Of a stretch of DNA of 64,000 bases, positions 1,769-43,122 are shown in pieces. The DNA is taken from assembly GCA_025060455.1 (NCBI GenBank), contig JANXBY010000038.1, positions 2,292 through 66,291 on the forward strand, written 5' to 3'. The position numbers and the translations under genes are program-made. Position 1 is the stretch's first letter. Every line of letters starts with the position of its first letter. A model generated the notes under the pieces. That model ran no database searches, had not been told where the DNA came from, and saw only the letters and a program-made list of their open reading frames with translations. This DNA comes from Armatimonadota bacterium (GTDB lineage Bacteria > Sysuimicrobiota > Sysuimicrobiia > Sysuimicrobiales > Sysuimicrobiaceae).

Positions 1769-1781
1769 GGACGTGGGCTCG

Positions 1782-4489: not shown

Positions 4490-5339
4490 GTACGTGACGC
4501 CCACAACCCTTCGCGAGGCGCTGGAGCTCCTTTCGGGCGCCGGCGGCGGGGAGGCCGTGGTGTGGGCGGGAGGGACAGGACTTGGACCCCTCCTGCGGCG
4601 GGGCCTGGCATCCCCCGCGGTGCTGCTGGGGCTGGAGAAGGTCGGGGAGCTGGGAGGCGTTCAGCCCGCGGACGGCGGCTTGCGGCTGGGTGCCACTGTG
4701 CGCCTGCGAGACCTGCAGCGTTCGCCCGTGGTTGCGGCCCGGGTCCCGGCGCTGGCGGACGCGGCCGGGCGGGTAGGAAACGTGCGGGTCCGGAGCCTGG
4801 CCACGCTCGGGGGACACCTGTGCCACGCGGACCCCGCGCAGGATCTGCCACCGGTGCTGGTGGCCCTGGGGGCGCGGGTGTGCCTTGTGAGTCTCCGGGG
4901 TACCAGGGTGTTGCCGCTGGAGGAGTTCTTCGTGGGGCCCCTGCAGACGGTCCTCTCCCCCGAGGAGCTCCTCACCGAGGTGTGGGTGCCGGGCGAGTCG
5001 GCCTCCCGTAACACGGTCTATGCGCGCTTTGCGCCCCGTAGCCCCGAGGACTACCCCACCGTGGGTGTGGCGGTCAGCGTGCGCCTGGATCCGGACGGCG
5101 TTTGTCAGGAGGCACGGGTGGCGGTGGGCGGGGCGGGGCCCACGGTGCTTCGGATCACGGCCGCGGAACAGGCCCTGGTGGGAGGGGTGCTGGCGGGGCA
5201 GCGGATCCGCGACGCCGCCCGGGAAGTAGAAGCCGCGGTAGACCCCTGGGACGACTCGCGGGGGAGCGCGGAGTACAAGCGGGCCATGGCGCGGGTGTGG
5301 ACGGAACGGGTTCTGCAGAAGTTGGCGGACGAAGTGTGA
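4476..5339 (+). CDS. FAD-binding medium subunit of the Mo-hydroxylase (CoxM-like)
   Basis: Starts VKTPEYVTPTTLREALELL...GGTGLG, a FAD-binding PCMH-type domain. An in-frame GTG at 4476 overlaps the small-subunit stop; the longer ORF from 4341 would overlap the previous gene by about 150 nt. Confidence 0.85.
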   Translation: MKTPEYVTPTTLREALELLSGAGGGEAVVWAGGTGLGPLLRRGLASPAVLLGLEKVGELGGVQPADGGLRLGATVRLRDLQRSPVVAARVPALADAAGRVGNVRVRSLATLGGHLCHADPAQDLPPVLVALGARVCLVSLRGTRVLPLEEFFVGPLQTVLSPEELLTEVWVPGESASRNTVYARFAPRSPEDYPTVGVAVSVRLDPDGVCQEARVAVGGAGPTVLRITAAEQALVGGVLAGQRIRDAAREVEAAVDPWDDSRGSAEYKRAMARVWTERVLQKLADEV

Positions 5340-5362
5340 GTCCACAGGAGGTGGTGATCCCC

Positions 5363-6370
5363 ATGGCGAGGTGGGTTTACCGCGGTTGGGTCGCCGCTGC
5401 GTTGGTGGTGGCCCTGGTGTCGGCTTCGGCCGCCCAGGCGGACCTCGTGGCCGCGGCCAAGCGGGAGGGCCGGGTGGTGCTGTACGGCTCCCTCACCACG
5501 CTGGACGTGGTGAACAAAATCTTCGAGAGCCGGTACGGGGTGTCCGTGGAGTACTGGCGGGCGGCGAGCACGCGGGTGCTGGACCGCGTGCTCAACGAGA
5601 CGCGGGCGGGCCGCCCCCAGTTTGACGTGGTGCAGACCAACAGCAGCCCCATGATGATCCTCCGGGAGGCAGGCGCGTTCGCCCGGTACGCCTCTCCCTC
5701 GTACGAGCTGTTCGGGAAGTCCACCCGGGACCCGCAGTCCCTGGTGTCCCCTCAGTTCCTGGTGATTCCCATCGGGATCGTGTACAACACGCGCCTGGTG
5801 CGCCCGGAGGAAGCACCCCGCAGCCTCACCGACCTCCTGGACGCGCGGTGGTCGGGCAAGGTGGTGATGGCCGACCCCACCCTGCACACCACCACTGCGC
5901 AGTGGCTGATGGAGCTGCGGTCGGTCCTGGGCGCGCAGTGGCGGCCGTTCCTGGAGGGGCTGGCAGGCCAGGTCGGCGCGTACGTGGAGTCCTTCATCCC
6001 CGTGGCAGACCGGCTGGTGCGGGGCGAGTTCCCGGTGGGCCTCACCTACATCCGGTACGTGTACCAGTTCGGGAAGGAAGGCGCGCCTTTGGACTACGTG
6101 CGGCTGCCCGTGTTCCTCGCGGACGGCCACCGCATCGCCCTGGGCGCGCGGACGAGCCGCCCCAACGCGGCCAAACTGTACATCGAGACCCTGCTGTCGC
6201 GCGCCGGCCTGCTGGCCCTGGCCCAGGACGGGGACTTCGTCTCCCTGCCCGGGGTTTACCCGCCGCTTCGGGACGCGGAACGGCTTCGGATCGTGGCCAT
6301 GCGGGACTACGACGAGGCGGGACTGACGCGAGCCCGGGAGGAGTTGGGCCGGATCTTCCGCAGGCGGTAG
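5363..6370 (+). CDS. Periplasmic substrate-binding protein (PBP2 fold, Fbp/Afu-like), orphan
   Basis: Real start is probably ATG 5363 (MARWVYRGWVAAALVVALVSASAAQA, signal peptide) rather than the 5102 ORF start. Extracellular solute-binding protein family 1-like. No cognate permease or ATPase adjacent. Confidence 0.75.
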   Translation: MARWVYRGWVAAALVVALVSASAAQADLVAAAKREGRVVLYGSLTTLDVVNKIFESRYGVSVEYWRAASTRVLDRVLNETRAGRPQFDVVQTNSSPMMILREAGAFARYASPSYELFGKSTRDPQSLVSPQFLVIPIGIVYNTRLVRPEEAPRSLTDLLDARWSGKVVMADPTLHTTTAQWLMELRSVLGAQWRPFLEGLAGQVGAYVESFIPVADRLVRGEFPVGLTYIRYVYQFGKEGAPLDYVRLPVFLADGHRIALGARTSRPNAAKLYIETLLSRAGLLALAQDGDFVSLPGVYPPLRDAERLRIVAMRDYDEAGLTRAREELGRIFRRR

Positions 6371-6821
6371 CGGCCCGCCCGTTCCTGGAGTGCTTCCCCT
6401 GGCAGGTGAGCCGTGCGGGGCACGCAATCGGGACACCCCGTAGCCTTGTACGGGAGAGGTGAGACGCCGGCCGCGACCGTCGCGTTTCGCCCGTGAGGTC
6501 TCGCGCGGCAGCGCCGGTGCAGCCCTTCCACGGGGTGTTGTTAGGGCCAGGAGCGGCGTGTCCCCTTTCTGGGGAGGGGGACACCGCGGACGGGGAAGGC
6601 CACGGGGGTGAAGAGGAACCAAGACCAACCGGTACCCCGTGGACGCCTGCCCGGCGGTGTCCTTTCACGCCCCCGTAGGTACGGGTCTCCTGGGCGCCGA
6701 CGGAGGGATTGCTGGGCTCCCAGCAACCCGGGTCGATCGTGCAGCCCGCGGGGCAGTGGCATGCGGCCGGTACGTGCACCGGTTCCCCCGGCTTGAGCTG
6801 TACCTGCCGGAGGAGTAACGC

Positions 6822-7610
6822 CTAGGGGGCGGAGGCGAGGCGGCGCCGGAGGCTTTCCTCGTAGGCGGTGTAGCCCAACCGGGCGGACACCTCCCGGCAG
6901 GCGGCCACGATGGCCCTGCGCAGCTCGTCCCTCTGCCGGTGGAACCGGTAGGCGGGCACCGACAGGCTCATGGCGGCCACCACCTCGCCTCGGTGGTCGC
7001 GGATGGGGGCCGCCACGCAGCACAGCTCCAGCACCGCCTCCTCGATGTCAAAGGCGTATCCGCGCAGGCGCACCTCCTCCAGCTCTGCCCGCAGCTGGTG
7101 CAGGTCAGTGATGGTGTTGGGGGTCAGGGCCGGTAGGCCGGTCCGCGCCAGCAGCGCCTCGACCTCGGGCCACGGGCGCGCGGCCAGGAGGATCTTGCCC
7201 ACGGCGCTGCAGTGCGCGGGCAGCTCCACACCCACCCCCGTGACCGACACCTGCACCGCCCGGGTGCCCTGTAACTTGTCCACGTACAGCACCCGGCCCG
7301 ACTCCATGGTGGCCAGGTGGACGGTCTCCCCGAACCGGCTCACCAAGTCCTCCATGACCGGCCGTGCCTCCACCCGGTACTGGGTCGTGGTCAGCAGGGT
7401 GGTGGAGAGGGCTAGGATCCGCCAGCCCAGGCGGTACCGCCGGTCGGAGGTCCGGCGCAGCAGGCCGATCTCGCACATAGTGCACAGGAGGGCGTGGGCG
7501 GTAGACTTGGGGATGCCGAGCAGGGAGGACACCTCGCTGACGCTGCGTTCGGGGTGAGTCGCCCCGAACAGCTCCAGCACCTGCCCCACCCGTCGGACCG
7601 TGCTGAGCAT
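6822..7610 (-). CDS. IclR-family transcriptional regulator
   Basis: 262 aa with an N-terminal HTH (VSEVSSLLGIPKSTAHALLCTMCEIGLL) and a C-terminal IclR effector-binding domain. Divergent from the downstream Liv-type/pobA operon. Confidence 0.9.
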   Translation of the reverse strand: MLSTVRRVGQVLELFGATHPERSVSEVSSLLGIPKSTAHALLCTMCEIGLLRRTSDRRYRLGWRILALSTTLLTTTQYRVEARPVMEDLVSRFGETVHLATMESGRVLYVDKLQGTRAVQVSVTGVGVELPAHCSAVGKILLAARPWPEVEALLARTGLPALTPNTITDLHQLRAELEEVRLRGYAFDIEEAVLELCCVAAPIRDHRGEVVAAMSLSVPAYRFHRQRDELRRAIVAACREVSARLGYTAYEESLRRRLASAP

Positions 7611-7663
7611 CTGTCTTGCTATTATACGGCTGGCCGAGATCCTCTGGAAGAGGTATTTTCCGG

Positions 7664-7687
7664 TATCGTGAACCTAGGTTCCGGATA
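7664..7687. promoter_or_regulatory. Near-perfect 24-bp palindrome TATCgtGAACCT/AGGTTCcgGATA (perfect 12-bp core GAACCTAGGTTC); candidate IclR operator
   Basis: Read directly in the iclR/livK-like divergent intergenic region, which is AT-richer than the surrounding genome. Flanked by direct repeats TTCCGGTAT and TTCCGGATA. Confidence 0.5.
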
Positions 7688-7776
7688 GAAGAACAGACCC
7701 CTTGCCCGGGGCAGCTCTGCGGCGGATTCTAGTGCCGGTCCGCTGGACCTCTGAAGTTGGTCGACGGGGGTGAGCC

Positions 7777-8973
7777 GTGGCTCGCAGCACGTTGTGGGTG
7801 TCGCTTCTGGTGCTGGCGCTGGCGGCGGGAAGCGCCGCGGGGCCGGCGGGGGTGGTGAAGTTGGGTGCCGTGATCCCGCTCACCGGCAGGTTCGCCTCCG
7901 GGGGAGCTCAAGTGCGCACGGGTTACGAGATGGCCGTGGAGGACCTGAACGCCCGGGGAGGGGTGCGTGTGGGCGGCCAGTCCCTGCGGGTGGAGCTGAC
8001 GATCCTGGACGACGAATCGGATCCCACCAAGACCGTGAGCAGGATGGAGGCCCTGGCCCAACAGGACATCGCCGCGTACCTGGGCGGGTTCGGCAGCGAC
8101 CTGCACGCGGCTGCGGCCGCGGTGGCGGAGAAGAACCGTATCCCGTACTGCGGGGTCGCCTTCGCCCTGTGGGGGATCCACCAGCGCGGCTACAAGTACC
8201 TCTTCTCACCGTTCCCCAAGTCACCTGAGCTGGCCATTGAAACCTACCGCATGCTCAACGGCTACCTCCCGCCGGACCAGCGGCCCCGGCGCGTGGCCAT
8301 CTTCGCGGAGCGCACCGACTGGGGCCGGGAGATGGCAAACCTGTGGTCCATCCGATCGACGGAGTTCGGCTACCAGGTGGTCTTCCAGGGGGAGTACACG
8401 GTGGGCACCCGCGACATGAGCGACCTGGTCCTGCGGGCCAAAGCCGCGGGCGCCGAGCTGGTCCTGGCGGTGCCGACACCTCCGGACGGGATCACGCTGG
8501 TGCGGCAGATGAAGGAGCTGGACTTCAACCCGAAGGCGTACGTGCTCATCCGGGCTCCCGACGCGCCCGCGTGGGGCCAGAGCCTGGGAAAGGACGGGGA
8601 CTACACCTTGCTCATGCCGGGGTGGCACCACGCGGTGAAGTTCCCTGGGGCCTCCGAGCTCAGCGCCAAGCACCAGCAGCGCTTCGGCCGACCCGCGGAC
8701 GTGCTGGTGGGCCCGTCCTACGCCTGCGTGCAGGTGGTCGCGGACGCCATCCAGCGGGCAGGGAGCCTGGACCGGGAACGGATTCGGGAGGCCATGGCCT
8801 CCACGAACCTCAGGGCCACGGTGGTGGGGCCGGTGCGGTTCCGCCCCGACGGCACGAGTCCCGTGACCACCGTGGTGGTGCAGTGGCAGGCTGGGCGGCA
8901 GGAGCTGGTGTGGCCCAGGCAGTTCGCCACGCGGCCGCTGGCCTACCCGGCTACCCCTTGGCGCAGCCGGTAG
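7777..8973 (+). CDS. ABC transporter substrate-binding protein, LivK/Leu-Ile-Val-binding family (candidate aromatic-acid binder)
   Basis: 398 aa with signal peptide and PBP1 LivK-type fold (GAVIPLTGRFASGGAQ...LDDESDPTKTVS). First gene of an operon ending in pobA. About 70% identical to the paralog at 28711. Confidence 0.9.
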   Translation: MARSTLWVSLLVLALAAGSAAGPAGVVKLGAVIPLTGRFASGGAQVRTGYEMAVEDLNARGGVRVGGQSLRVELTILDDESDPTKTVSRMEALAQQDIAAYLGGFGSDLHAAAAAVAEKNRIPYCGVAFALWGIHQRGYKYLFSPFPKSPELAIETYRMLNGYLPPDQRPRRVAIFAERTDWGREMANLWSIRSTEFGYQVVFQGEYTVGTRDMSDLVLRAKAAGAELVLAVPTPPDGITLVRQMKELDFNPKAYVLIRAPDAPAWGQSLGKDGDYTLLMPGWHHAVKFPGASELSAKHQQRFGRPADVLVGPSYACVQVVADAIQRAGSLDRERIREAMASTNLRATVVGPVRFRPDGTSPVTTVVVQWQAGRQELVWPRQFATRPLAYPATPWRSR

Positions 8974-9067
8974 GTGAGGGGGAGGGGCCATCGTCGGACG
9001 TCTGTCTGACACCACTGCGCCACGAGCTGGCGCGGCCGCCAGGAAGGCGCTGCTGCAGCTGTGGGGC

Positions 9068-9772
9068 TTGTCCAAGCGGTTCGGCGGGGTCCAGGCGGTG
9101 CGGGAGCTGGACCTGGAGGTGGGCGAGGGCGAGATCTTCGGCCTGCTGGGACCCAACGGCTCCGGGAAGACGACGGTCTTCAACTTAGTCGCCGGCGTGC
9201 TCGCCCCCGACGCCGGAGAGATCCGGTTCGGGGGCGTTCTCCTGAACGGGCTACCGCCCCACCGACGGGCGGCCCTCGGCGTGGCCCGGACCTTCCAATT
9301 GGTCCGCAGTCTGGGACGGCTCAGTGTTGCCGACAACGTGGCCGTGGCGCGGCTGTACGGGGCGACCCCCGCGCGGTCCGTGGACGCCGCCCGCCAGGAA
9401 GCCTCCCAACTGCTGGCCCTGGTCGGCCTCGCCGGTAAGGCACACCTGCCGGCGGCCAGCCTGAACCTGGCAGAGCGGCGCCGACTGGAGGTAGCCCGGG
9501 CCCTGGCGACCCGACCTCGGCTCCTGCTGCTCGACGAGCCGTTGGCGGGCCTGAACGCCGACGAGGTGCAGGCGGAGGTCGGGCTGTTCCGCCGGCTGCG
9601 GGAAGAAGGGCTCACTTTGGTCCTGGTAGAGCACAACGTGCCCGCGGTGCGCAGCCTGTGCGACCGCGTGGCCTTCCTGCACGCCGGGGAGAAGGTCGCG
9701 GAAGGATCCCCCGAGCAGGTGCTTTCCCACCCTCGGGTGGTGGAGGTGTACCTCGGAGGGGCCGCGGGATGA
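9068..9772 (+). CDS. ABC transporter ATP-binding protein (LivG-like)
   Basis: Walker A motif GPNGSGKTT. Apparent TTG start, since no in-frame ATG or GTG lies upstream after the stop at 8975-8977. Confidence 0.85.
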   Translation: MSKRFGGVQAVRELDLEVGEGEIFGLLGPNGSGKTTVFNLVAGVLAPDAGEIRFGGVLLNGLPPHRRAALGVARTFQLVRSLGRLSVADNVAVARLYGATPARSVDAARQEASQLLALVGLAGKAHLPAASLNLAERRRLEVARALATRPRLLLLDEPLAGLNADEVQAEVGLFRRLREEGLTLVLVEHNVPAVRSLCDRVAFLHAGEKVAEGSPEQVLSHPRVVEVYLGGAAG

Positions 9773-10485
9773 CCGCCCCTGCGCTGGAGCTCCGCGGTGT
9801 CCAGGCCGCGTACGGCGACGCGCAGGTGCTGTGGGGCGTGGACTGGCAGGTGAACCCCGGCGAGGTGGTGGCCGTGGTGGGCCCCAACGGCGCGGGGAAG
9901 AGTACGGCTTTGCGGGTGGTGGCAGGCCTCCTTCGGCCCCTCCGGGGCGAGGTGTGGTTCCATGGAGAACGCATCGACGGGCTTTCCCCAGACCAGGTGG
10001 TGGAGCGTGGGGTGGCCCTCGTGCCCGAGGGGCGGCGGCTGTTCGCGCACATGACGGTGCTGGAGAACCTGTTGCTGGGCGGCTACACCGCCCGTGCGCG
10101 GTCGGTGCGGCGGCAGACCCTACGGGAGGTCTTCGAACTGTTTCCGGTGCTGGCGGAGCGGTCCGGGCAGACAGCAGGTACCCTGTCCGGCGGGCAACAG
10201 CAGATGTTGGCCATCGCCCGGGGCCTGATGAGCCGTCCGCGGCTGCTGCTGCTGGACGAGCCGTCCCTGGGGCTTGCGCCCGTGGTGGTGCAGCAGGTCT
10301 ACGAGGTGGTACGCCGCATTGCGTTACAGGGGGTGACCGTGGTGGTGGTGGAGCAGAACGTGTTCCCGGTGTTGCACCACGCGCCGCGTGGTTACCTCAT
10401 GGCGGGCGGGAGGGTGGTGGCCCAGGGATCCGCGGAGACTCTCGTCCGCACCGAGGTGGTGCAGCGGTCGTACGTGGGGGGCTAG
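9769..10485 (+). CDS. ABC transporter ATP-binding protein (LivF-like)
   Basis: MTAPALELRGVQAAYGDAQVL...GPNGAGKST. ATGA overlap with the upstream stop; the longer ORF from 9658 is rejected. Confidence 0.9.
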   Translation: MTAPALELRGVQAAYGDAQVLWGVDWQVNPGEVVAVVGPNGAGKSTALRVVAGLLRPLRGEVWFHGERIDGLSPDQVVERGVALVPEGRRLFAHMTVLENLLLGGYTARARSVRRQTLREVFELFPVLAERSGQTAGTLSGGQQQMLAIARGLMSRPRLLLLDEPSLGLAPVVVQQVYEVVRRIALQGVTVVVVEQNVFPVLHHAPRGYLMAGGRVVAQGSAETLVRTEVVQRSYVGG

Positions 10486-11361
10486 GTGGAGGTCTGGCTG
10501 CAGAACGTCACCTTCGGGGCCCTGGTGGGAGGGCTGTACGGCCTAGCCGCGGTGGGGCTGGCCCTGGTGTTCGGGGTCCTCCGGATGCTGAACGTGGCCC
10601 ACGGGGAGCTCATCATGCTGGGCGGGTACGCCACCTTCTGGCTGTTCACCCTGTGGGGCACGGACCCGTACGTCTCCCTCCTGGTGGCCGCGCCGGCGCT
10701 GTTCGCCGTCGGGGTGGGGCTGTATGAGGGTCTGTTCGGAAGGCTGGTGCGTTTGCACGAGGAGTCCAAGGTTCAGCTTTCCATCCTGATTGGCTTCGGC
10801 CTGGCCCTGGTGCTGCACGCCCTGGCCATCCTCCTGTGGACCGCAGACGACCGTGCCGTCACCGCCGAGTACGCCGGCCGGGTGTTGCGGGCCGGGCCGC
10901 TGGTGGTGCCCCTCACGCGGCTCGCGGGCCTTGGGGTCGCGTTCGCGGTACTCGGGGCTCTGCAGCTGTTCCTCCAGCGCACCGACGCGGGGCGGGCCAT
11001 CCGAGCCACCGCGGAGGACTGGGAGGCGGCGTTCCTCATGGGCATCCCCGTGCGCCGCGTCTACCGTACCGCCTTCGCCCTAGGCAGCGCCCTGGCAGGG
11101 GTGGCCGGGAGCCTGGTGGCGGTGTCCGACGCCATCAGCCCCGCCATCGGTCTCAGCTGGACCCTTAAGGCACTCATCGTGGTGGTCCTGGCCGGGCTGG
11201 GCAGCATCTTCGGCACCTTCGTCGCGGGGGTGCTGTTGGGGGTCGCGGAGTCCGCGGCAGCCTTCGCCCTGGGCGGAGCATTCCGGGAGGTGGTGGGGCT
11301 CGTGCTGTTCGTGGCGGTGTTAGCCGTGCGGCCTCAGGGGCTGTTCGGGAGGGGGTTGTGA
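10486..11361 (+). CDS. Branched-chain-amino-acid-type ABC permease (LivH-like)
   Basis: 291 aa polytopic membrane protein. N-terminus LNVAHGELIMLGGYATF is typical of LivH. Confidence 0.9.
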   Translation: MEVWLQNVTFGALVGGLYGLAAVGLALVFGVLRMLNVAHGELIMLGGYATFWLFTLWGTDPYVSLLVAAPALFAVGVGLYEGLFGRLVRLHEESKVQLSILIGFGLALVLHALAILLWTADDRAVTAEYAGRVLRAGPLVVPLTRLAGLGVAFAVLGALQLFLQRTDAGRAIRATAEDWEAAFLMGIPVRRVYRTAFALGSALAGVAGSLVAVSDAISPAIGLSWTLKALIVVVLAGLGSIFGTFVAGVLLGVAESAAAFALGGAFREVVGLVLFVAVLAVRPQGLFGRGL

Positions 11362-12278
11362 ACCCCTCGGTGGCCGCGGCGGCCGCGGTGGCCCTGGCGG
11401 CTGCGTTGCCGTGGGTGGCGGGCGACGCGGCAGTGAACTGGGGGCTGCTGGTACTCCTGCAGGTGACGGTGGCGCAGTCGTGGAACCTCCTGGGGGGCTA
11501 CGGAGGCCAGGTGAATCTCGGTCACGCCGCGTTCTTCGGCATCGGTGCCCTGGTGACCCGCGGTCTGTGGGTGCAGGGCACCCCCGTGGTGGGGGCGCTG
11601 GTAGCGGGCTCCGCGGCGGCGGCCGTGGCGGGGCTGGTGGTGGGACTCCCGTCCCTGCGGCTCCGGGGCCCGTACTTCGCCATCGGCACCCTGGCCATGG
11701 CAGAGATCCTACGGATCGTGGTGGGGACCACCCTGCCGGAGGTGTCCGCGCTACCCTCGGATCTGATCACCGGCTACCGCCTGGTGCCCCGCTACTACCT
11801 GGCGTTGGCCCTGGCCGTCCTCAGCACCGCGGTGGTGTGGAGGGTGTCGTGCTCCCGGTTCGGGATGGGGCTCGTGGCGATCCGCGAGGACGAGTGGGTG
11901 GCCGAGACCGTGGGGGTGGACACCTACCGCCACAAGCTGGCCGCCCTGCTGCTGAGTGCGGCCCTCGCGGGAGCCGCGGGCGGTGCCTTCGGCTACTACC
12001 ACCTGAGCTTCTACCCGCAGTTCGTCTTCAGCCCCGTGTGGACCTTCGACGCGGTGCTCATGGTGTTCCTGGGCGGGATCGGGACCGTGTGGGGGCCGCC
12101 CGTGGGTGCGACCTTCTTCGTCCTGCTGCGGGAAGCCCTGGCGTTGCGGCTCACGGAGCTCCACGTGTTGGTGTTCGGAGCGGTGTTCGTGGTGGTGGTG
12201 CTGACCCTGCCGGGCGGGCTGGTGGACGTCGCCAGGGTCCTGCGGGCCATGCGGGTCCGGCGGCCACAACCTGCCTAG
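11358..12278 (+). CDS. Branched-chain-amino-acid-type ABC permease (LivM-like)
   Basis: 306 aa membrane protein (SWNLLGGYGGQVNLGHAAFFGIGA). 4-nt overlap with livH-like. Confidence 0.9.
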   Translation: MNPSVAAAAAVALAAALPWVAGDAAVNWGLLVLLQVTVAQSWNLLGGYGGQVNLGHAAFFGIGALVTRGLWVQGTPVVGALVAGSAAAAVAGLVVGLPSLRLRGPYFAIGTLAMAEILRIVVGTTLPEVSALPSDLITGYRLVPRYYLALALAVLSTAVVWRVSCSRFGMGLVAIREDEWVAETVGVDTYRHKLAALLLSAALAGAAGGAFGYYHLSFYPQFVFSPVWTFDAVLMVFLGGIGTVWGPPVGATFFVLLREALALRLTELHVLVFGAVFVVVVLTLPGGLVDVARVLRAMRVRRPQPA

Positions 12279-12303
12279 GCGACTCTCACCGAGGAGGCGG
12301 ATC

Positions 12304-12732
12304 ATGGCGGAAGCATTGCCCGAGCGCCAGATGTCGGAAGAGGAACTGCAGCGGCTACGGTCGGTGTACGTGGACCTGGTGGGGTTCGTCCCGCCCCGGA
12401 TCGAGGCCCGGACGGAGTTGCTGAGCCGGCTGGACCCGGAGGGCCTGCGGATGCAGGAGGAGATGCGGCGCCACTTCATGTACCCGAGGTGTTTTGACAC
12501 GAAGACCGCGCAGCTGATGCTGTTCGGCATGCTGCTCATGAACCTGCAGGACGCGGCGAAGCTGCATGCCATCGCCGCACGGCGGGCGGGCGCCACGTGG
12601 GAGGAGCTCAGCGCGGTGGTGGGACTGGCATTCCTGTTCCGAGGGCTGTCCGCGGCCAACTACGGCTTCCAGATCCTGCAGGAGATGGCGCAGTCGGAGG
12701 CGGGATCCGTGGAGGCCACCCAGAGGAGGTGA
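12304..12732 (+). CDS. Carboxymuconolactone decarboxylase (CMD/AhpD-like) family protein
   Basis: 142 aa, CMD-domain-like sequence. The family includes PcaC of the beta-ketoadipate pathway. Confidence 0.75.
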
Positions 12733-12737
12733 GGAGG

Positions 12738-13718
12738 ATGGCGGAGAGCCCAGTGGTGCAGCTGGCGCACGTGGAGATCCTCAGCCCGCGGCCGGAGCAG
12801 ACCCTGTGGTTCTTCCACGACCTGTTGGGGCTGGAGGAGACCGCCCGCCAGGGGCCGTCGGTGTACCTGCGGGCCTACGAGGACTGGTACCACCACACCC
12901 TCAAGGTGACGGAAGCGCCGGAGGCAGGATTGGGCCACATCGCGTGGAGGGCTGCCTCGGAGGAAGCCCTGGAAACGTTAGCCCGGCGCCTGGAGGAGCT
13001 GGGTTGGGGCCTGGGGTGGAGTGAGGGCGATCTGGGCCACGGCCGCGCGTACCGGTTCGTGACCCCGGACGGCCACCCCATGGAGGTACTGTGGGACGTG
13101 GAGTACTATCAGCCTCCAGCGGAGATGCGGACATCTCTCCGGAACCGACCACAGAGGCGGCCCCTGCGTGGGGTCCCCGTGCGCCGGATCGACCACGTGA
13201 ACGTGATGGCGCAGGCAGTGGGCCCGGTGCGGGAGTTCCTCACGGACGTCCTGGGCTTCCGCCTGCGGGAGCAGAAGATCGGCCAAGATGGGCAGGAGGT
13301 GGGGGCCTGGCTGAGCGTGAGCCCTCTCGTGCACGAGATCGCGGTGATGCGGGACGCCACGGGCCAGCGGGGCCGGTTCCACCACGTGGCGTACTGGTAC
13401 GGCTACCCGCAGCACCTGATGGACGCCGCGGACGTGATGGTGGACTACGGGGTGCGCATCGAGGCGGGGCCCGGCAAGCACGGCACCACCCAGGCGTACT
13501 TCATGTACGTGTTCGAGCCGGGCGGGGTCCGGGTGGAGCTGTTCGGGGACACGGGCTACCTCATTTTCGACCCCACGTGGAAGACGGTGGTGTGGGACGT
13601 GTCCAACGAGAGCGACCTGGAGCGCAGCAGCATCTGGTTCGGTGGCCGGCTGCCGGAGACCTTCTACACGTACGGGGTTCCCTCGGTGTCCTGGCAGGCG
13701 GTGGCGGGACGGCGCTAG
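12738..13718 (+). CDS. Type I extradiol ring-cleavage dioxygenase (catechol 2,3-dioxygenase-like, VOC superfamily)
   Basis: Starts [17 protein letters not shown] at ATG 12738 with a GAGGAGG ribosome-binding site. Two VOC modules; conserved H...H...E metal-ligand spacing as in XylE-type enzymes. Paralog of 38257-39267. Confidence 0.9.
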
Positions 13719-13772
13719 GCGCCTGCCTGTGAAACGCCGAGCGACGAAGGGCCGTACCTGCTGGGAAACGAC

Positions 13773-14420
13773 GTGGCGCCGCCCGCGGCGTTCGTCAGCG
13801 TCGAGCTGGTGGTGGACTTCGCGGGGGCGACCCGGCGGACGGCGGGATGGCCGGGCGGCGGGGAGCAGCTGGTGCAGGACGCCCGCTACACCATGAAGGG
13901 ATCCGCGGCCCCTGCCACCCTGCACGCAGGGACGCTTCCGGTGGAGTCGCGCGTGGAGGCAGACCTCCCCACGGGCCAGGTGGAGGGGGCGGTGCGGGCA
14001 GCGCCGGCCCACGGGCTGGTACGCCCCAGGGGCTCCAGGCGCTTCTCCCCCGTGCACAACGGTCGGCCCCTGCGGCCGGACAGGGTTCTACCCGCGGACG
14101 CCCCGCCGCCGCATCCACGGGACCTGTTCGCGCGCGGCAACATGGCCGGCGATCCGGGGGCGGTCCACAGGGACGGCCCCTCGCCTCAGACGCACCAGGA
14201 CACCAGCTACGACAGGTCCAGCTTGGCGGACAGCCAGGACACGGTCTTCCGCGCCGGGGCGGACGCGGACCCCGTGGTCGCCCACGTGTACCTGGACGGC
14301 GAGGAGGACGACGCCTTCGCGCAGGAGTTGGTGGCCGCGGGCGAGCGCACGTGCTTTCTGCACGCCCTGTCTCGGTCAGATCTGGACGTGCGGCTGGTCT
14401 TCGGTCCCGCGGGGTGGTAG
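13773..14420 (+). CDS. Hypothetical protein
   Basis: 215 aa ORF tightly packed between the dioxygenase and pobA (stop 2 nt before the pobA start). High GC3. No recognisable domain by eye. Confidence 0.45.
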   Translation: MAPPAAFVSVELVVDFAGATRRTAGWPGGGEQLVQDARYTMKGSAAPATLHAGTLPVESRVEADLPTGQVEGAVRAAPAHGLVRPRGSRRFSPVHNGRPLRPDRVLPADAPPPHPRDLFARGNMAGDPGAVHRDGPSPQTHQDTSYDRSSLADSQDTVFRAGADADPVVAHVYLDGEEDDAFAQELVAAGERTCFLHALSRSDLDVRLVFGPAGW

Positions 14421-14421
14421 G

Positions 14422-15618
14422 GTGGCAAGGACCCAGGTGGCTGTCGTGGGGGCGGGGCCGGCGGGCCTGCTGTTGAGCCACCTCCTGCACCAGGCGGGCG
14501 TGCGCAGCGTGGTGCTGGAAACCCGAAGCCGCGCATACGTGGAGCAGCGGGTGCGCGCCGGGGTCCTGGAGGACGGGACGCGCCAGATCCTCCTCCGGGC
14601 CGGGGTCGGGGAGCGGATGGAGCGGCAGGGCCTGGTACACGAGGGGGTCAACTTCGCGTTCGAGGGGTCGCTGCTGCACTTCGACTTTCCCGCCCTGACG
14701 GGGGGCCACACCATCACCGTTTACGGGCAGCAAGAGGTGGTGAAGGACCTCATCCGGGCCCGGTTGGACGCCGGCGGCGATGTGCGGTTCGAGGCCGAAG
14801 CGGTGCGGTTGGAGGACCTGGACGGGGTCGTCCGCGTGTACTACCGGAACCCCGACGGCTCCGAGGACTGCCTGGAGGCCGACTTCGTGGCGGGCTGTGA
14901 CGGCTCCCAGGGGATCTGCCGCGGGTGGTTGCCGGACTCCGTCCGGCGCGTGCACCAGCGGGCGTACCCGTTCGCGTGGTTGGGCATCCTGGCTGAGGCG
15001 CCCCCGGCTTCCCACGAGCTCATCTACGTGAACCACCACCGGGGCTTTGCCCTGTTCAGCATGCGCTCTCCCCACCTGTCGCGGAACTACATCCAGGTGC
15101 GCGCGGAGGAGACCCTGGAGGAGTGGCCCGACGAGCGCATCTGGGAGGAGCTGCAGCGCCGCCTGGACCGCGCCGCCCAGATCACCGTGGGGCCCGTGCG
15201 GGAGAAGAGCCTGGCGCCGCTTCGCAGCCTGGTGGTGGAGCCCATGCAGCACGGCCGGCTGTTCCTGGCCGGGGACGCGGCCCACGTGGTGCCGCCCACG
15301 GGCGCGAAGGGGCTGAACCTGGCGGTGTGCGACGTGGTGGTGCTGGCGCGGGCGCTGGTGGACTACTACCGGAGGGGTGAGGAGGCGGGTCTGCGGGCGT
15401 ACACCGACCGGTGCCTGGAGCACGTGTGGCAGGCAGAACACTTTTCCTGGTGGATGACGCAGCTGCTGCACCGCCTGGACGACCCGTTCGAGGAGGGGAT
15501 GCAGCGGGCGCAGCTGCGGGCGCTGCGCCGCAGCGAGGCCGCCCGCCGGTACCTGGCGGAGAACTACACGGGGGTGCACACCAGCCTGCGGTACGTGGAC
15601 TGGGTCCCCGCGGGGTGA
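14422..15618 (+). CDS. pobA: 4-hydroxybenzoate 3-monooxygenase (p-hydroxybenzoate hydroxylase)
   Basis: 398 aa, collinear with PobA: QVAVVGAGPAGLLL...GGHTITVYGQ...LAGDAAHVVPPTGAKGLNLA...SWWMT. Confidence 0.9.
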   Translation: MARTQVAVVGAGPAGLLLSHLLHQAGVRSVVLETRSRAYVEQRVRAGVLEDGTRQILLRAGVGERMERQGLVHEGVNFAFEGSLLHFDFPALTGGHTITVYGQQEVVKDLIRARLDAGGDVRFEAEAVRLEDLDGVVRVYYRNPDGSEDCLEADFVAGCDGSQGICRGWLPDSVRRVHQRAYPFAWLGILAEAPPASHELIYVNHHRGFALFSMRSPHLSRNYIQVRAEETLEEWPDERIWEELQRRLDRAAQITVGPVREKSLAPLRSLVVEPMQHGRLFLAGDAAHVVPPTGAKGLNLAVCDVVVLARALVDYYRRGEEAGLRAYTDRCLEHVWQAEHFSWWMTQLLHRLDDPFEEGMQRAQLRALRRSEAARRYLAENYTGVHTSLRYVDWVPAG

Positions 15619-15631
15619 GGGAGGCCCATGC

Positions 15632-16222
15632 CTACGGCGCCCGGAGGGGCCAGAGGGTAGGCAGCAGCGAGATCCCGAGCGCGTACAGCGCCGCCGCCAG
15701 GGGGAGGCCTACGCGCAGGTAGTCGCGGACCGTGTACCCGGCGGGCGCCATGACCAGGAGGTTCACCGCGTTGCCCAGCGGCGTAGCAAAGGTGGTCGCA
15801 GTGGCCGCCACCACGGCCACCGCCAGGGACGCAGGGCTAACCGCCAGCCGCGTGCTCGCCTCCAAGGCCACGGGCGCGAGGACCACTGTGGCCGCCACGC
15901 TGGGGACAAGTTGGTTCAGCACCACCCCCACCGCGTAGAGGTAGCAGAACGCCGTGAAGGGCGAGCCCGCCAGGGCCACCAGCGGCGAGAAAACGTCTTC
16001 TACCGCCCCGGTGCGCACCAGAACCCCGGAGCGGGGCAGCAGGCATGTCAGGAACACCACGCTGCGCCAATCCACCACCCGGTAGGCCTCCTCCGGGGAC
16101 AGGCAACGGAACCCCACCACCGCCACCGCGCCCGGCCTCCACCGCCCCCAGGCCAGAGCGGCCACGGCGCACCGCAGCAGGGCGAGGGCCAGAACGCCAG
16201 GGGCCGCGGAGGTGGGGTTCAC
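15632..16222 (-). pseudogene. Truncated C-terminal fragment of an SLC13/DASS-family anion permease (TrkA-C-containing type)
   Basis: The 196-aa ORF matches only the last third of YfbS-like permeases (LSPEEAYRVVDWRSV...TFATPLGNAVNLLVMAPAGYTVRDYLRVGLPLAAAL). Its 5' end abuts the stop of the thiolase gene, so the N-terminal roughly 400 aa are absent. Confidence 0.55.
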
Positions 16223-16232
16223 GAGCTCCGGG

Positions 16233-17399
16233 TCACGCCTCCCGCTCTACCGCCACCGCCACCGCCTCCCCGCCGCCCAGGCAGATGGCGGCGACGCCCC
16301 GACGTGCGCCCCGGCGCTGCATGGCATACAGGAGCGTGGTGAGGATGCGGGCCCCGGAAGCTCCGATGGGATGGCCCAGGGCCACCGCCCCTCCGTGCAC
16401 GTTCACCGGGTCCAGGGGCAGTCCCAGCTTGCGGCACACACCCAACACCACCGCCGCGAACGCCTCGTTGATCTCGTACAGGTCCACGTCTTCCTTGCGC
16501 CAGCCCACCCGGTCCAGCAGCCGCTCGATGGCGGCGGCCGGGGCGATGGTGAACCACTCGGGCGCGGTGGCCGCCTGCGCACACCCCACCACCCGGGCGA
16601 GAGGTTGGACGCCCACCCGGTCCGCCACGGACCGCTCCGCCACCACCAGCGCCGCGGCACCGTCGCTGATGCTGCTGGCGTTGGCCGCGGTCACCGTACC
16701 CTCTTTCTCGAAGGCGGGCTTCAGGGTCGGGATTCGGTCGAACTGCACCCGCCGCGGCTCCTCATCCTCCTCCACGCGCTTCCCGTCCGACTCCACGGGG
16801 ACTGTCTCCTGGCGGAACCAGCCGGAGTCCAGGGCCTGCAGAGCGAGTCGGTAGGATCGCTCCGCGTACGCGTCCTGGTCCTGCCGGCTGATGCGGTACT
16901 CCGCGGCCAGCAGCTCCGCGCACGACCCCATGTGGCAGTCGCGGTAGGGATCCCACAGCCCGTCAAGGATCATGGAGTCCTGGATTTCGCCGTGTCCGAG
17001 CCGGTATCCCGTGCGGGCCCGGGGAAGCAGGTAGGGCGCCCGGCTCATGTTCTCCATCCCCCCTGCCACGTACACCCGCCCATCGCCTGCCCGGATGGCC
17101 TGAGTAGCCAGCACCACCGCCTTGAGCCCCGACCCGCACATCTTGTTGACGGTCACCGCGCCCACGGAGTCGGGCAGTCCCGCGTACCGCGCCGCCTGTC
17201 GTGCGGGAGCCTGGCCCAGCCCCGCGGACAGGATGTTGCCAAGGATCACCTCGTCCACCTCTTCCGGCCGCACCCCGGCCCGTCGGACCGCCTCCTGAAC
17301 CACCACCGCGCCCAGGCGGGGCGCCGACACGTCTGCCAGGCCCCCCAAGAACCTGCCGATGGGCGTTCGCACCGCGCTCAAAATGACCGCTTCCGACAT
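16233..17399 (-). CDS. Acetyl-CoA C-acetyltransferase (thiolase II)
   Basis: 388 aa with MSEAVILSAVRTPIGRF and NKMCGSGLKAV motifs and the C-terminal thiolase signature. Confidence 0.9.
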   Translation of the reverse strand: MSEAVILSAVRTPIGRFLGGLADVSAPRLGAVVVQEAVRRAGVRPEEVDEVILGNILSAGLGQAPARQAARYAGLPDSVGAVTVNKMCGSGLKAVVLATQAIRAGDGRVYVAGGMENMSRAPYLLPRARTGYRLGHGEIQDSMILDGLWDPYRDCHMGSCAELLAAEYRISRQDQDAYAERSYRLALQALDSGWFRQETVPVESDGKRVEEDEEPRRVQFDRIPTLKPAFEKEGTVTAANASSISDGAAALVVAERSVADRVGVQPLARVVGCAQAATAPEWFTIAPAAAIERLLDRVGWRKEDVDLYEINEAFAAVVLGVCRKLGLPLDPVNVHGGAVALGHPIGASGARILTTLLYAMQRRGARRGVAAICLGGGEAVAVAVEREA

Positions 17400-17535
17400 G
17401 GCCCCACCTCGCAGGAGACCGCGGGAGCCCAGAGGACCCCCGCGGTCGACCCTTCGAGCCCATTCTACGCCGCATCTCCCAACCCGTGCGGCCGTCTGCT
17501 ATCCTGGCGGCGATCGCGGCGAGGAGGCGGGAGAA

Positions 17536-18879
17536 GTGCGCGACGAGTTTCCCCGGACCCGAGATGGTCACCTGTGCGTGGGCGGCTGCGACGCGGTGGA
17601 GCTGGCGCGCACCTTCGGGACACCGCTCCACGTGTTGGACGGTGGCCGCCTGCGGCGGAACCTGCAGGCCTACCGGGAGGCGTTTGCGGAGCACGCGCCC
17701 ACCGGACAACCCGTGTACGCCTCCAAGGCCCTGTGCACCGTGGCCACCTGCCAGCTGGTCCACCGGCACGGATTCTGGGTAGACGTGGCCTCCGGCGGAG
17801 AGCTTGCCACGGCCCTGCGGGCGGGGGTCCCCGCAGAACACCTGGTGTTCCACGGTAACTACAAGACCGAGGAAGAACTCCGGCTCGCGGTGCAGGCAGG
17901 CGTGGGCCGGGTGGCGGTGGACAACTTTCACGAACTGGACCTGCTGGACCGGCTGGCGCGGGAGGCGGGGCGGGTGGTGGACGTGTGGCTGCGGGTGACG
18001 CCCGGGATCGAACCGCACACGCATCGCGCCATCCAGACGGGAGGGGTGGACACGAAGTTCGGCTTTGGGATTCCCGACGGGACCGCGGCGCGGGCGGTGC
18101 GAGAAGCCGTGAACCGGCCGGGGCTGCGGGTGAGGGGTTTCCACAGCCACATCGGCTCCCAGATCCTGGAGCTGGAGCCGTTCCGGCAGAACGCGGAGCT
18201 GGTGGTGGCGTTCGCGCTGCAGGTGCGGTCCGAGCTGGGCTACGTGGCGGAGGAGGTAAACCTGGGCGGGGGACTGGGAATCCGCTACCTGGCCTCGGAC
18301 CGGCCGCCGAGCATCCACGCGTACGTGGCGGCGGTGGCCGCCGCGCTGTCCGCGGCGTGCGGGGCTGCGGACTACCCCGTGCCGCGGCTGTTCCTGGAGC
18401 CCGGGCGGTCCGTGGTGGGCCCCGCGGGGGTCACCCTGTACACCGTGGGGCCCATCAAGCAAATTCCTGGCGTCCGCACCTACGTGGCCGTGGACGGCGG
18501 CATGTACGAAAACCCCAGGCCTGCCCTGTACGGCGCCCGCTACGAGGCGGTGGTGGCGGAACGACCGGACGACCCGCCGCAGGGCGTCGTGGCCCTGGCG
18601 GGCCGGTGCTGCGAGTCCGGGGACGTGCTGGTGTGGGAAGCCGCCCTGCCTGCGGTGCGGCCCGGAGACGTGGTGGCGGTGTTCTCCACAGGGGCGTACA
18701 CGTACTCCATGGCCAGCAACTACAACCGTTTCCCGCGCCCGGCGGTGGTGCTGGCGGAGGACGGGCGGGCGACGGTCGTGGTGAGACGGGAGAGCTACGA
18801 GGACCTTCTGCGGCTGGACGTGGGGCTGTCGGAGGAAGGGGTCGAGGTGGTGGCCGCACGCGGCCCCTGCGCGAGTTGA
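17536..18879 (+). CDS. lysA: Diaminopimelate decarboxylase
   Basis: PLP-dependent fold III decarboxylase motifs (YASKAL, GGGLGI, CESGD). GTG start at 17536 preceded by GAGGAGG; the longer ORF from 17359 overlaps the antisense thiolase. Confidence 0.9.
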   Translation: MRDEFPRTRDGHLCVGGCDAVELARTFGTPLHVLDGGRLRRNLQAYREAFAEHAPTGQPVYASKALCTVATCQLVHRHGFWVDVASGGELATALRAGVPAEHLVFHGNYKTEEELRLAVQAGVGRVAVDNFHELDLLDRLAREAGRVVDVWLRVTPGIEPHTHRAIQTGGVDTKFGFGIPDGTAARAVREAVNRPGLRVRGFHSHIGSQILELEPFRQNAELVVAFALQVRSELGYVAEEVNLGGGLGIRYLASDRPPSIHAYVAAVAAALSAACGAADYPVPRLFLEPGRSVVGPAGVTLYTVGPIKQIPGVRTYVAVDGGMYENPRPALYGARYEAVVAERPDDPPQGVVALAGRCCESGDVLVWEAALPAVRPGDVVAVFSTGAYTYSMASNYNRFPRPAVVLAEDGRATVVVRRESYEDLLRLDVGLSEEGVEVVAARGPCAS

Positions 18880-29919: not shown

Positions 29920-29931
29920 GCGCATTCGACA

Positions 29932-30957: not shown

Positions 30958-30990
30958 TGCGGGAACCGCGCCGGGGAGGAGGGGACGCGG

Positions 30991-31998: not shown

Positions 31999-32066
31999 GG
32001 GTTCGCCCATCGGGGCAAGAGCTGGAAAGTCCCGGTGGTGTGCCTTCAATGAGCTTACAGGGGAGC

Positions 32067-33470: not shown

Positions 33471-33627
33471 AACCGCCTGTTGCGAAGCAGCCTGAGGCGC
33501 GGATGAGCCAGCGTGCGCAACCAGCACGTCACTGGGACTGTGGAGGGGCTGGATCACCGCGTCTCACTCCGGTGACGGGCCCTGGCACGACGAGGCGGTT
33601 CCGTGATGAGGAGGACGGTGGTCTGTC

Positions 33628-38226: not shown

Positions 38227-38256
38227 CGTCCTCCCCCCTTTCGGTGTGTTCGCCCC

Positions 38257-39267: not shown

Positions 39268-39280
39268 CCCCCGGTGGTTG

Positions 39281-43017: not shown

Positions 43018-43035
43018 CCGTGGCTGCACGGCGGC

Positions 43036-43064: not shown

Positions 43065-43122
43065 CTTTGTTGTAGACAATCTTGCAGTGGAGACCACGGG
43101 ACAACGGGTGAACACGGCTTTT

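Follow-up and report, generated by a model that had tools for sequence, protein, structure and literature searches.

The 64,000-nucleotide stretch analysed here (the window throughout; contig JANXBY010000038.1 of an Armatimonadota bacterium) has a G+C content of 71% and carries a plus-strand operon in which the five genes of a Liv-type ABC importer precede those for a carboxymuconolactone decarboxylase (CMD)-family protein, a type I extradiol dioxygenase and the hydroxylase PobA. The operon spans positions 7777-15618 and is transcribed divergently from a gene for an IclR-family regulator (Table 1). A sequence-only reading had interpreted this arrangement as a candidate unit for the uptake and catabolism of 4-hydroxybenzoate, and in view of the gene identities, the residues conserved in PobA and an altered binding pocket in the importer we find that interpretation broadly right. 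Families were assigned by scanning the open reading frames (ORFs) of the window with Pfam and NCBIfam profiles. Every ORF listed in the earlier reading is present and has a coding-type G+C content at third codon positions (GC3) of 0.86-0.94, and the families, the tight spacing and the divergent regulator were confirmed. The successive junctions within the operon measure 94, -4, 0, -4, 25, 5, 54 and 1 nt, and 166 nt separate iclR from the binding-protein gene. Nine genes had been counted, however, and only eight are intact: comparison with a syntenic locus identifies the ORF once labelled 'hypothetical protein' (13773-14420) as a pseudogene remnant.

The full gene order recurs in this syntenic locus, L003 (GCA_900175155.1), whose proteins are about 83-93% identical to those of the window, the remnant ORF excepted, and the core of IclR, CMD, dioxygenase and PobA genes recurs in dozens of loci from genomes and metagenomes. 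The arrangement is thus not due to chance. Beyond pobA and a CitMHS remnant lie a thiolase gene and housekeeping genes, which places the end of the unit at pobA. Judged from its sequence, the operon is most likely a genuine, conserved and IclR-controlled unit for the uptake of the plant-derived acid 4-hydroxybenzoate and the upper part of its degradation, with import of the substrate as the most likely task of the transporter. The close relatives (candidate division GAL15, Thermus, Thermomicrobium and bins named in hot-spring style, such as HR28 and HR39) suggest a thermophilic origin.

About 170 loci were compared overall. To collect a dioxygenase-selected set, one genome per GTDB species was scanned with the family alignment, and 80 loci were annotated locally by phmmer; a CMD-selected set, also of 80 loci, was obtained from metagenomes scanned with the CMD alignment alone. 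Exact-sequence look-ups returned no record for PobA or the dioxygenase (P0001), and found the CMD protein only on two short Logan contigs.

Table 1. Position and assignment of the operon genes, control elements and related features (window coordinates)
Feature	Position	Strand	Basis or remark
IclR-family regulator	6822-7610	-	HTH_IclR + IclR_C; divergent from the operon
Predicted IclR operator, two 17-bp GTTC-N9-GAAC boxes	7657-7694		Conserved tandem pattern
Promoter-like site TTCAGA-18-TAGAAT	7726-7755	-	Sigma-70 consensus match only
Peripla_BP_6 binding protein, LivK-like fold, signal peptide	7777-8973	+	Pfam, 172 bits
LivG-like ABC ATPase	9068-9772	+	ABC_tran + BCA_ABC_TP_C; 83% identical to L003
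LivF-like ABC ATPase	9769-10485	+	Pfam/NCBIfam; ATGA overlap with livG
LivH-like ABC permease	10486-11361	+	BPD_transp_2; 93.5% identical to L003
LivM-like ABC permease	11358-12278	+	BPD_transp_2; 4-nt overlap with livH
CMD-family protein, 142 aa	12304-12732	+	PF02627, 30 bits (cut-off 23)
Type I two-domain Glyoxalase/VOC extradiol dioxygenase, 326 aa	12738-13718	+	TIGR03211
OsmC-like gene remnant ('hypothetical protein')	13773-14420	+	No family match of its own
PobA	14422-15618	+	NF006091
CitMHS/TrkA_C transporter remnant, 196 aa, convergent	15632-16222	-	599 aa in L003; 67% identity over the remnant
Orphan binding-protein paralogue, 68% identical, no permease genes of its own	28711-29919	+	Sequence comparison

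PobA, the dioxygenase and the CMD-family protein

PobA clears the NF006091 cut-off (560 against 351 bits) but not that of the TIGR02360 equivalog (506.2 against 538.7 bits). It aligns end to end with solved p-hydroxybenzoate hydroxylase (PHBH) at about 57% identity (E ~1e-126) and keeps Tyr201, Ser212, Arg214, Tyr222, Pro293, Thr294 and Tyr385, the residues that bind 4-hydroxybenzoate according to established structural work on PHBH, as well as His72. With the NF006091 cut-off passed and the active-site residues intact, PobA is divergent but credible despite its TIGR02360 shortfall. Its predicted conversion of 4-hydroxybenzoate into protocatechuate is well supported, and as far as sequence can tell it is a genuine 4-hydroxybenzoate 3-monooxygenase, in agreement with its earlier identification as PobA.

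The dioxygenase gene starts at 12738, which corrects the call of the sequence-only reading, and the resulting 326-residue product matches an NCBI protein (P0001) at 100%. The metal ligands and catalytic residues (H153, H215/H216, E267, H248 and Y257) are invariant in the family alignment. In a neighbour-joining (NJ) tree the enzyme forms a clade with that of a Bacillales metagenome-assembled genome (MAG), L009, to which it is 65% identical, with PraH-linked enzymes of Thermalbibacter and Thermomicrobium, and with a set from Armatimonadota, Thermus and Anaerolineae, every member of which is linked to a CMD gene. The rest of the family (Bacillaceae, Rhodococcus, Chloroflexus, alphaproteobacteria) is for the most part found in ordinary clusters of the catechol meta pathway, without PobA, PraH or CMD. 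Lys occupies position 180 in the nine CMD-linked enzymes of the main clade, without exception, and in the two PraH-linked enzymes that were compared (L009, L018); in 40 catechol-type relatives the residue is Ile, Val or Leu. Lys180 is a candidate carboxylate-binding determinant of the dioxygenase.

A precedent for ring cleavage next to a PobA-type enzyme is found in Paenibacillus sp. JJ-1b, whose praR-praABEGFDCHI genes encode the 2,3-cleavage of protocatechuate (Kasai et al. 2009, as described in PMC12455638 and PMC6362003). In this operon ring cleavage falls to PraA, hydroxylation to PraI and control to the IclR-type PraR, and the ACMSD-like PraH (BAH79106) decarboxylates 5-carboxy-2-hydroxymuconate-6-semialdehyde (5-CHMS). 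The L009 cluster is pra-like, with genes for IclR, amidohydrolase_2, an aldehyde dehydrogenase, two FAA-hydrolase-family proteins, an acetaldehyde dehydrogenase, a DmpG-type aldolase, a tautomerase, the dioxygenase, a PobA-like flavoprotein and an MFS transporter. The choice of an extradiol enzyme beside PobA is therefore unusual, as had been remarked, but it is not without precedent, since the gene set of the window follows the logic of pra. From this genomic context we propose that the enzyme is a protocatechuate 2,3-dioxygenase, protocatechuate being favoured over catechol or alkylcatechols.

The CMD-family protein had been treated as incidental to the operon. The comparative data contradict this, and show it to be the most conserved partner of the dioxygenase. 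Its Pfam hit is marginal, and at E ≤ 0.001 it matches no NCBIfam model, the PcaC models included. An AlphaFold (AF2) model (pLDDT 85.9) is all-helical, and the solved structures closest to it are CMD-family proteins of at most 22% identity, so that the predicted structure confirms the CMD fold. The protein is highly conserved among 2,472 homologues (E ≤ 1e-3), which carry generic names only. Within the dioxygenase-selected set the CMD gene lies directly upstream of the dioxygenase gene in the window and in L003, L005, L007, L010, L011, L012, L013, L063, L067, L069 and L074, and in L020 the two genes share a cluster but are 8 kb apart. Among the 80 CMD-selected metagenome loci, 58 contain the dioxygenase and 20 PobA; the dioxygenase gene directly follows the CMD gene in 45 of the 65 with room downstream, the order CMD-iclR-praG-praF-praE-dioxygenase-binding protein-Liv was found in 13, and dioxygenase-CMD-praG-praF in two.

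Two relatives display the complete route. In L010, whose dioxygenase is 88% identical to that of the window, the order is praE,B,D,F,G< iclR< CMD> diox> pobA>, and in L013, from Thermus igniterrae ATCC 700962, it is praE,B,D,C,F,G< iclR< CMD> diox> Liv... pobA>. Genes of the lower pathway for 2-hydroxymuconate semialdehyde (HMS) also adjoin the orthologous core in eight metagenome loci (L135, L142, L144, L157, L159, L161, L164 and L166). Measured against the pra pathway, PraH is the single function missing from L010 and L013 and the CMD gene the single addition, and Pfam scans of the unassigned ORFs in these two loci disclosed no further decarboxylase candidate. A PraH-like gene occurs in none of the 80 CMD-selected loci and in no CMD-bearing locus of either set. 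In seven genome loci a bona fide pobA lies no more than 10 kb from the dioxygenase gene: six carry CMD, one carries PraH, and none has both or neither. Because PraH is the sole absentee and CMD the sole extra, we propose a non-orthologous displacement, in which the CMD-family protein, as its genomic context suggests, would act as a non-homologous 5-CHMS decarboxylase in PraH's place. 5-CHMS resembles a β-oxo acid, and its decarboxylation fits the cofactor-free chemistry for which the CMD superfamily is named; it is reported to absorb at about 350 nm, and HMS at about 375 nm. A replacement of PraC or PraD by CMD was also considered and rejected, as L013 carries PraC, PraD and CMD together. Literature searches for a CMD-type 5-CHMS decarboxylase, or for such a pathway in Armatimonadota or Thermus, returned nothing relevant, though phrases containing '2,3-' were unsearchable.

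Some further features of these two loci may be recorded here. The L013 module (NZ_AQWU01000069.1, locus 3480-18848) comes from a cultured Thermus; downstream of its dioxygenase gene lie a different Peripla_BP_6 protein, Liv permease and ATPase genes and the alpha and beta subunits of a Rieske dioxygenase, followed by pobA. The Rieske enzyme suggests that a second aromatic acid feeds the same route. In L010, the closest GTDB relative, a 187-aa fragment of an HpaB-type 4-hydroxyphenylacetate 3-hydroxylase (7852-8415) lies between praG and iclR and represents a decayed aromatic gene.

An alternative order of reactions has to be weighed, in which protocatechuate is first decarboxylated to catechol, possibly by the CMD protein, and the dioxygenase is a true catechol 2,3-dioxygenase (C23O) that opens the meta pathway. 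The enzyme does pass the TIGR03211 equivalog for this activity (334.4 bits; cut-off 320.2), its nearest solved structures, 3LM4 and 7Q2A (AphC; E ~1e-96), are catechol/alkylcatechol dioxygenases, the majority of its family is found in plain catechol clusters, and the need for a decarboxylase-family gene would be accounted for as well. However, the known protocatechuate decarboxylases are UbiD/AroY enzymes dependent on prenylated FMN, and cofactor-free decarboxylation is hard for an aromatic carboxylate without an ortho-hydroxyl and easy for a ring-fission product that resembles a β-oxo acid. The PraH-linked sister enzymes (L009, L018) also point to decarboxylation after ring cleavage, and the clade-specific Lys180 suggests an anionic substrate. 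Decarboxylation ahead of ring cleavage is, in our judgement, rather improbable.

An accessory role for the CMD protein also seems unlikely. As a stabiliser, a subunit or a protectant against metal or oxidative damage it would serve the dioxygenase in an XylT-like manner, with 5-CHMS decarboxylated spontaneously or by an enzyme encoded elsewhere. The coupling of the two genes (a 5-nt gap here, an overlap in L007 and L013) would agree with such a role, as would the AhpD-like antioxidant function of many superfamily members, the OsmC-like gene of the peroxiredoxin family on the other side of the dioxygenase gene in some relatives, and the presence of CMD in clusters that have no PobA. Yet the protein has no CxxC, and its sole Cys, Cys63, is Val in L069 and L074, so that with no conserved Cys an AhpD-type redox role is unlikely. 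In the 13 loci with CMD-iclR-praG-praF-praE order, moreover, the CMD gene stands apart from the dioxygenase gene, beside iclR-praG-praF-praE, its occurrence is strictly complementary to that of PraH, and the catechol-type relatives of the dioxygenase manage without it.

The window contains a second ring-cleavage cluster some 25 kb downstream, and this raises a third possibility: the operon's dioxygenase could cleave protocatechuate in the 4,5 style and deliver its product to a PIG-L/CHA aldolase route, with CMD as a tautomerase or similar enzyme. A CHA aldolase, a PIG-L protein, DUF6282 and an NAD-binding protein do lie beside a second C23O-like dioxygenase and LigM/DesA-like O-demethylases, and Pfam scans and locus annotation detected no HMS-pathway gene (praB-G) and no PraH/Amidohydro_2 in the 64 kb. 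Across about 100 loci, however, the pair of CMD and the operon's dioxygenase is linked to HMS genes (praB-G) and never to the aldolase/PIG-L pair, which has its own dioxygenase, 48% identical, both here and in L089. We regard a 4,5-type fate as very unlikely and retain 2,3-cleavage followed by decarboxylation by CMD.

The importer and its control

All five components of the importer have Liv architecture, and all score far below the Liv/Urt cut-offs of NCBIfam; the binding protein reaches 79.9 bits against the LIV-binding model NF011933, whose cut-off is 477. The LivJ sequence, checked against PDB 1Z15, was aligned with the binding protein and 14 orthologues at about 20% identity. Among the residues that hold the alpha-amino-acid moiety in the LivJ/LivK structures (Ser79, Ala100, Thr102, Tyr202 and Glu226), Ser79 is kept in this alignment, and the binding protein shows T102A, Y202T and E226R, as well as Y18G. 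Across these 15 sequences position 102 is Ala, position 202 is Thr, Asn or Ala and position 226 is an invariant Arg; in LivJ, Glu226 pairs with the ammonium group of the ligand. With this amino-acid triad lost, the pocket is not identical to that of LivJ. Among solved structures the binding protein is closest to 8WCH, from SAR11, whose crystallised ligand, L-pyroglutamate, is a carboxylate that lacks a free amino group. Similarity to the Rhodopseudomonas proteins 4ey3/4eyg/4eyk is remote (E = 2e-8), so that the parallel drawn earlier with CouP and HbaE stands as a functional analogy and not as a family assignment. We propose the binding protein as a receptor for an aromatic acid, 4-hydroxybenzoate and/or protocatechuate.

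Orthologues of the binding protein occur beside CMD/dioxygenase clusters in at least 14 loci of Armatimonadota and Anaerolineae. Among close relatives the core is found without the importer in L010, L090, L091, L093 and L095, and with it in the window, L003, L094 and L096-L098, which identifies the importer as an accessory module, an insertion that separates the enzyme genes from the regulated promoter region. That the transporter is an ordinary amino-acid importer which merely neighbours the enzymes, without functional coupling, would be in keeping with its five Liv-type components and with the best NCBIfam names (LivG/LivF/LivH/LivM or urea Urt). The scores far below those cut-offs speak against it, as do the lost triad with its invariant Arg for Glu226, the junctions that overlap or measure 0-25 nt, the recurrence of the orthologous binding proteins beside CMD/dioxygenase clusters in two lineages, and an operator whose position is identical with or without the importer. 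Such an uncoupled importer is extremely unlikely, and we keep to a transporter dedicated to the pathway.

Within 8974-9067 the LivG frame is open ahead of the first ATG/GTG/TTG (…ALLQLWGLSKRFGG) and agrees with the N-terminus called in L003 (LLQLRGLCKRFGG). Translation of LivG may therefore begin a few codons before the TTG at 9068, and the gap of 94 nt would then be shorter. In the orphan paralogue of the binding protein the pocket is changed in the same way (A102, T202, R226), and its gene adjoins the O-demethylase cluster here and in L089. Tentatively linked to the operon, this paralogue may deliver a different aromatic acid to its LivHMGF transporter.

The regulator belongs to the IclR family, as had been noted, but the link to PobR and PcaU does not extend to the subfamily, since its score against TIGR02431 (PcaR/PcaU/PobR) is 161.3 bits with a cut-off of 284.75. 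It is 90.5% identical to its L003 counterpart, and orthologues (above 330 bits) flank a CMD or binding-protein gene in 18 loci. A palindrome at 7664-7687 had been singled out as its candidate binding site. This palindrome exists, with GAACCTAGGTTC at 7671-7682, but it marks the place where two conserved 17-bp boxes meet, box 1 at 7657-7673 (TTTCCGGTATCGTGAAC) and box 2 at 7678-7694 (GTTCCGGATAGAAGAAC), separated by CTAG. We rejected it as a conserved unit because the 4-nt centre varies among loci while the flanking boxes stay. The composite GTTC-N9-GAAC-N4-GTTC-N9-GAAC occurs once in the 64 kb, where 0.01 would be expected, and a conserved CCTTGC block follows at 7700-7705. With at most one mismatch, the boxes are equidistant from iclR in 16 of 18 orthologous intergenic regions, in both the Armatimonadota-type and the Thermus-type groups, and their position is the same whether the first downstream gene encodes the binding protein or CMD. 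This conservation suggests that IclR binds at the tandem operator.

A promoter-like site on the minus strand is the sole sigma-70-like match in 6700-16400, and its TAGAAT block (ATTCTA on the plus strand) is kept among the Armatimonadota loci. It would read through the boxes toward iclR, which suggests autoregulation. On the plus strand of this region no sigma-70 promoter could be assigned convincingly.

The proposed route and the remainder of the window

Gene identities, operon structure, the conserved PobA active site, the loss of the LivJ triad and the conservation of the operator and of the CMD-dioxygenase pair can all be read from the sequences themselves. On this basis we propose the following route. 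The IclR regulator would bind the tandem GTTC-N9-GAAC operator and control a single transcript. The Liv-type importer, with a binding protein re-tooled from amino acids to an anionic ligand that is not an amino acid, would most likely import 4-hydroxybenzoate and/or protocatechuate, and PobA would convert the imported 4-hydroxybenzoate into protocatechuate. The dioxygenase would then open protocatechuate next to the diol to give 5-CHMS, probably at the 2,3 position, given the regiochemistry that its family shows on 4-substituted catechols. The CMD-family protein would strip the extra carboxyl group to yield HMS, which would enter the ordinary meta-cleavage lower pathway, adjacent in relatives. 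As no HMS-pathway gene lies in the window, this lower pathway must be encoded elsewhere in the genome. The ligand, the regiochemistry, the CMD reaction and the effector of the regulator we infer. On balance we consider the scheme as a whole to be probable.

Several observations weigh against it. The dioxygenase clears the cut-off for catechol 2,3-dioxygenases and is so named in every database. At 326 aa it is longer than PraA, whose gene is reported at 881 bp (about 290 aa), and two praA quantitative-PCR primers match none of the 169 loci used for primer matching beyond chance. Translated, these primers give a 'RAVFH(H)...HNLVRG'-like reading that recalls the FHH motif of the family with a different spacing, a likeness that is suggestive only, and a database search from the L009 dioxygenase returned no protein named PraA. 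Given gene size and primer mismatch, the window enzyme may belong to a type I subfamily other than that of PraA, and may be its equivalent in role and not its orthologue. A second clade of CMD-linked dioxygenases lacks Lys180, and many CMD-linked loci have no PobA within reach. Neither meta-pathway genes nor PraH lie in the window to account for the onward conversion of the ring-fission product in this organism, and a PraH gene may exist elsewhere in the CMD-bearing genomes. Finally, the comparison of the pocket with LivJ uses an alignment at about 20% identity and ligand residues taken from the literature.

The second CMD-linked clade consists of L063, L067, L069 and L074 (MAGs of Thermomicrobiales, Chloroflexota, Rubrobacter and Actinomycetota), whose more distant dioxygenases are about 52% identical and have His in place of Tyr at position 310. 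In the NJ tree it is sister to the second dioxygenase of the window. Here too the CMD gene precedes the dioxygenase gene (pobA> CMD> dioxygenase> in L074), so that the CMD partnership spans two dioxygenase lineages.

Two genes next to pobA have decayed. In L003 the gene between dioxygenase and pobA encodes a tandem OsmC-like protein of 361 aa with a C-terminal OsmC domain. Two deletions have shortened the window copy relative to it: one of about 155 nt took away the 5' end together with the start codon, and an internal one of about 237 nt the first OsmC Cys motif. The identity of the remnant to the L003 protein is 62%, where the neighbours reach 84-93%, and the remnant is probably non-functional. 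As the gene is fragmentary or absent in several other relatives, it is dispensable. Together with the convergent CitMHS remnant on the other side, it represents two independent gene decays flanking pobA in this genome.

The second aromatic cluster (28711-43167) contains three kinds of binding protein (the orphan LivK-like paralogue, an NMT1-like and a TctC-like protein) and two LigM/DesA-like tetrahydrofolate (THF)-dependent O-demethylases, one of them above the LigM cut-off (603.7 against 580). Further genes encode a formate-THF ligase, MTHFR, a GntR/FCD regulator, DUF6282 and an NAD-binding DUF1932 protein. Its C23O-family dioxygenase scores 333 against TIGR03211 (cut-off 320), its CHA aldolase 185 bits against NF006731 (cut-off 179), and its PIG-L-family protein is possibly a GalB-like hydratase. 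The genes for the PIG-L protein, the aldolase, the dioxygenase, the O-demethylase and the binding protein recur in L089. For a gallate/4,5-type lower pathway to be paired with a type I extradiol enzyme, and not with LigAB/GalA, would itself be unusual. The G+C content dips to 0.655-0.661 at 30001-34000 (about 0.71 elsewhere; GC3 0.75-0.79) over the genes for the NMT1-like and TctC-like proteins and the first O-demethylase, which may mark a more recent acquisition.

Upstream of the regulator, 44-5339 encodes a thiamine pyrophosphate (TPP)-dependent enzyme, far below the cut-off of the benzoylformate decarboxylase model, followed by three molybdenum hydroxylase subunits, of which the Mo subunit has xanthine dehydrogenase and 4-hydroxybenzoyl-CoA reductase alpha as best models, both below cut-off. 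We considered these genes as members of the unit and rejected them, since they are not kept ahead of the operon in L003 and none of their scores reaches a curated cut-off; they are probably unrelated to the operon, although a role with aromatic aldehydes or acids is conceivable. Directly behind iclR, at 5102-6370 on the plus strand, lies an orphan SBP_bac_11-type binding protein gene with no permease genes nearby, and L003 has an SBP_bac_11 gene (329 aa) at the same position.

Significance and comparison with known systems

Protocatechuate is the main funnel for lignin-derived aromatics. Its 2,3-cleavage is the least known of the three ring-opening options, and in the literature that we found it is described from Paenibacillus sp. 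JJ-1b. The new elements proposed here are a CMD-family protein in PraH's place, a C23O-family enzyme in the protocatechuate role and a re-tooled Liv-type importer. More tentatively, we suggest that these loci represent a widespread and hitherto unrecognised version of the meta-(2,3)-cleavage of protocatechuate. Its dioxygenase would be of the C23O family, though not necessarily of PraA's subfamily; the pathway would occur in Armatimonadota, Thermus, Chloroflexota and, among Actinomycetota, Rubrobacter and others, and some lineages would feed it through a re-tooled Liv-type importer. We give this generalisation slightly less than an even chance. If the reading is right, a 2,3-cleavage variant with a different and very small decarboxylase, found in many loci and represented by about 2,500 CMD homologues, would be common in thermophilic and uncultured phyla, and at present misannotated throughout as "catechol 2,3-dioxygenase" plus "carboxymuconolactone decarboxylase family protein". 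Pathway predictions from metagenomes would be corrected, and the CMD superfamily would gain a new reaction. Thermostable parts for lignin valorisation might also be obtained; PraA-type cleavage already serves the production of 2,5-pyridinedicarboxylate. Since Thermus igniterrae ATCC 700962 carries the module, the role proposed for CMD is testable in a cultured organism.

Among known systems the closest in logic is the pra cluster of strain JJ-1b. The window shares with it an IclR-type regulator, a PobA-type hydroxylase comparable to PraI and a type I extradiol dioxygenase; the gene content of L009 equals that of the published cluster, including the Amidohydro_2 PraH-like and PobA-like genes, and in L010 and L013 the HMS lower pathway stands alongside the core. 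The window differs in that PraH (amidohydrolase_2/ACMSD-like) is absent and the 142-aa CMD-family protein takes its place, in that the lower-pathway genes praB, C, D, E, F and G lie outside both operon and window, and in the five-gene Liv-type importer between regulator and enzymes.

With the pobA-pobR/pcaK systems of Acinetobacter and Pseudomonas the operon has in common the PobA active site, a divergent IclR-family regulator and dedicated uptake. However, the regulator falls below the PcaR/PcaU/PobR cut-off, an ABC importer stands in place of the MFS transporter PcaK, and protocatechuate cleavage would be extradiol instead of intradiol (PcaGH). The aromatic-acid importers of Rhodopseudomonas palustris (CouP, HbaE; 4EY3/4EYG/4EYK) resemble that of the window in architecture, in the Peripla_BP_6 fold and in their linkage to aromatic catabolism, whereas the binding proteins themselves are only distantly similar and the nearest solved structure is 8WCH.

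The dioxygenase shares its family, the two-domain VOC fold, the 2-His-1-carboxylate ligands and the catalytic His and Tyr with the TIGR03211 catechol 2,3-dioxygenases (3LM4, AphC 7Q2A), and is distinguished from them by its PobA/CMD context and by Lys180 in place of a hydrophobic residue. The CMD protein, finally, has the superfamily fold of PcaC, the 4-carboxymuconolactone decarboxylase that is the founding activity of Pfam CMD, and the cofactor-free decarboxylation of an activated carboxylate is plausibly common to both. Pfam scans of the window gave no member of the PcaHG, PcaB or PcaD families, and the recognised neighbours in the roughly 170 loci are meta-pathway genes. In contrast to PcaC, the CMD protein lies in meta-cleavage clusters throughout the loci examined, and never occurs there with ortho-pathway genes.

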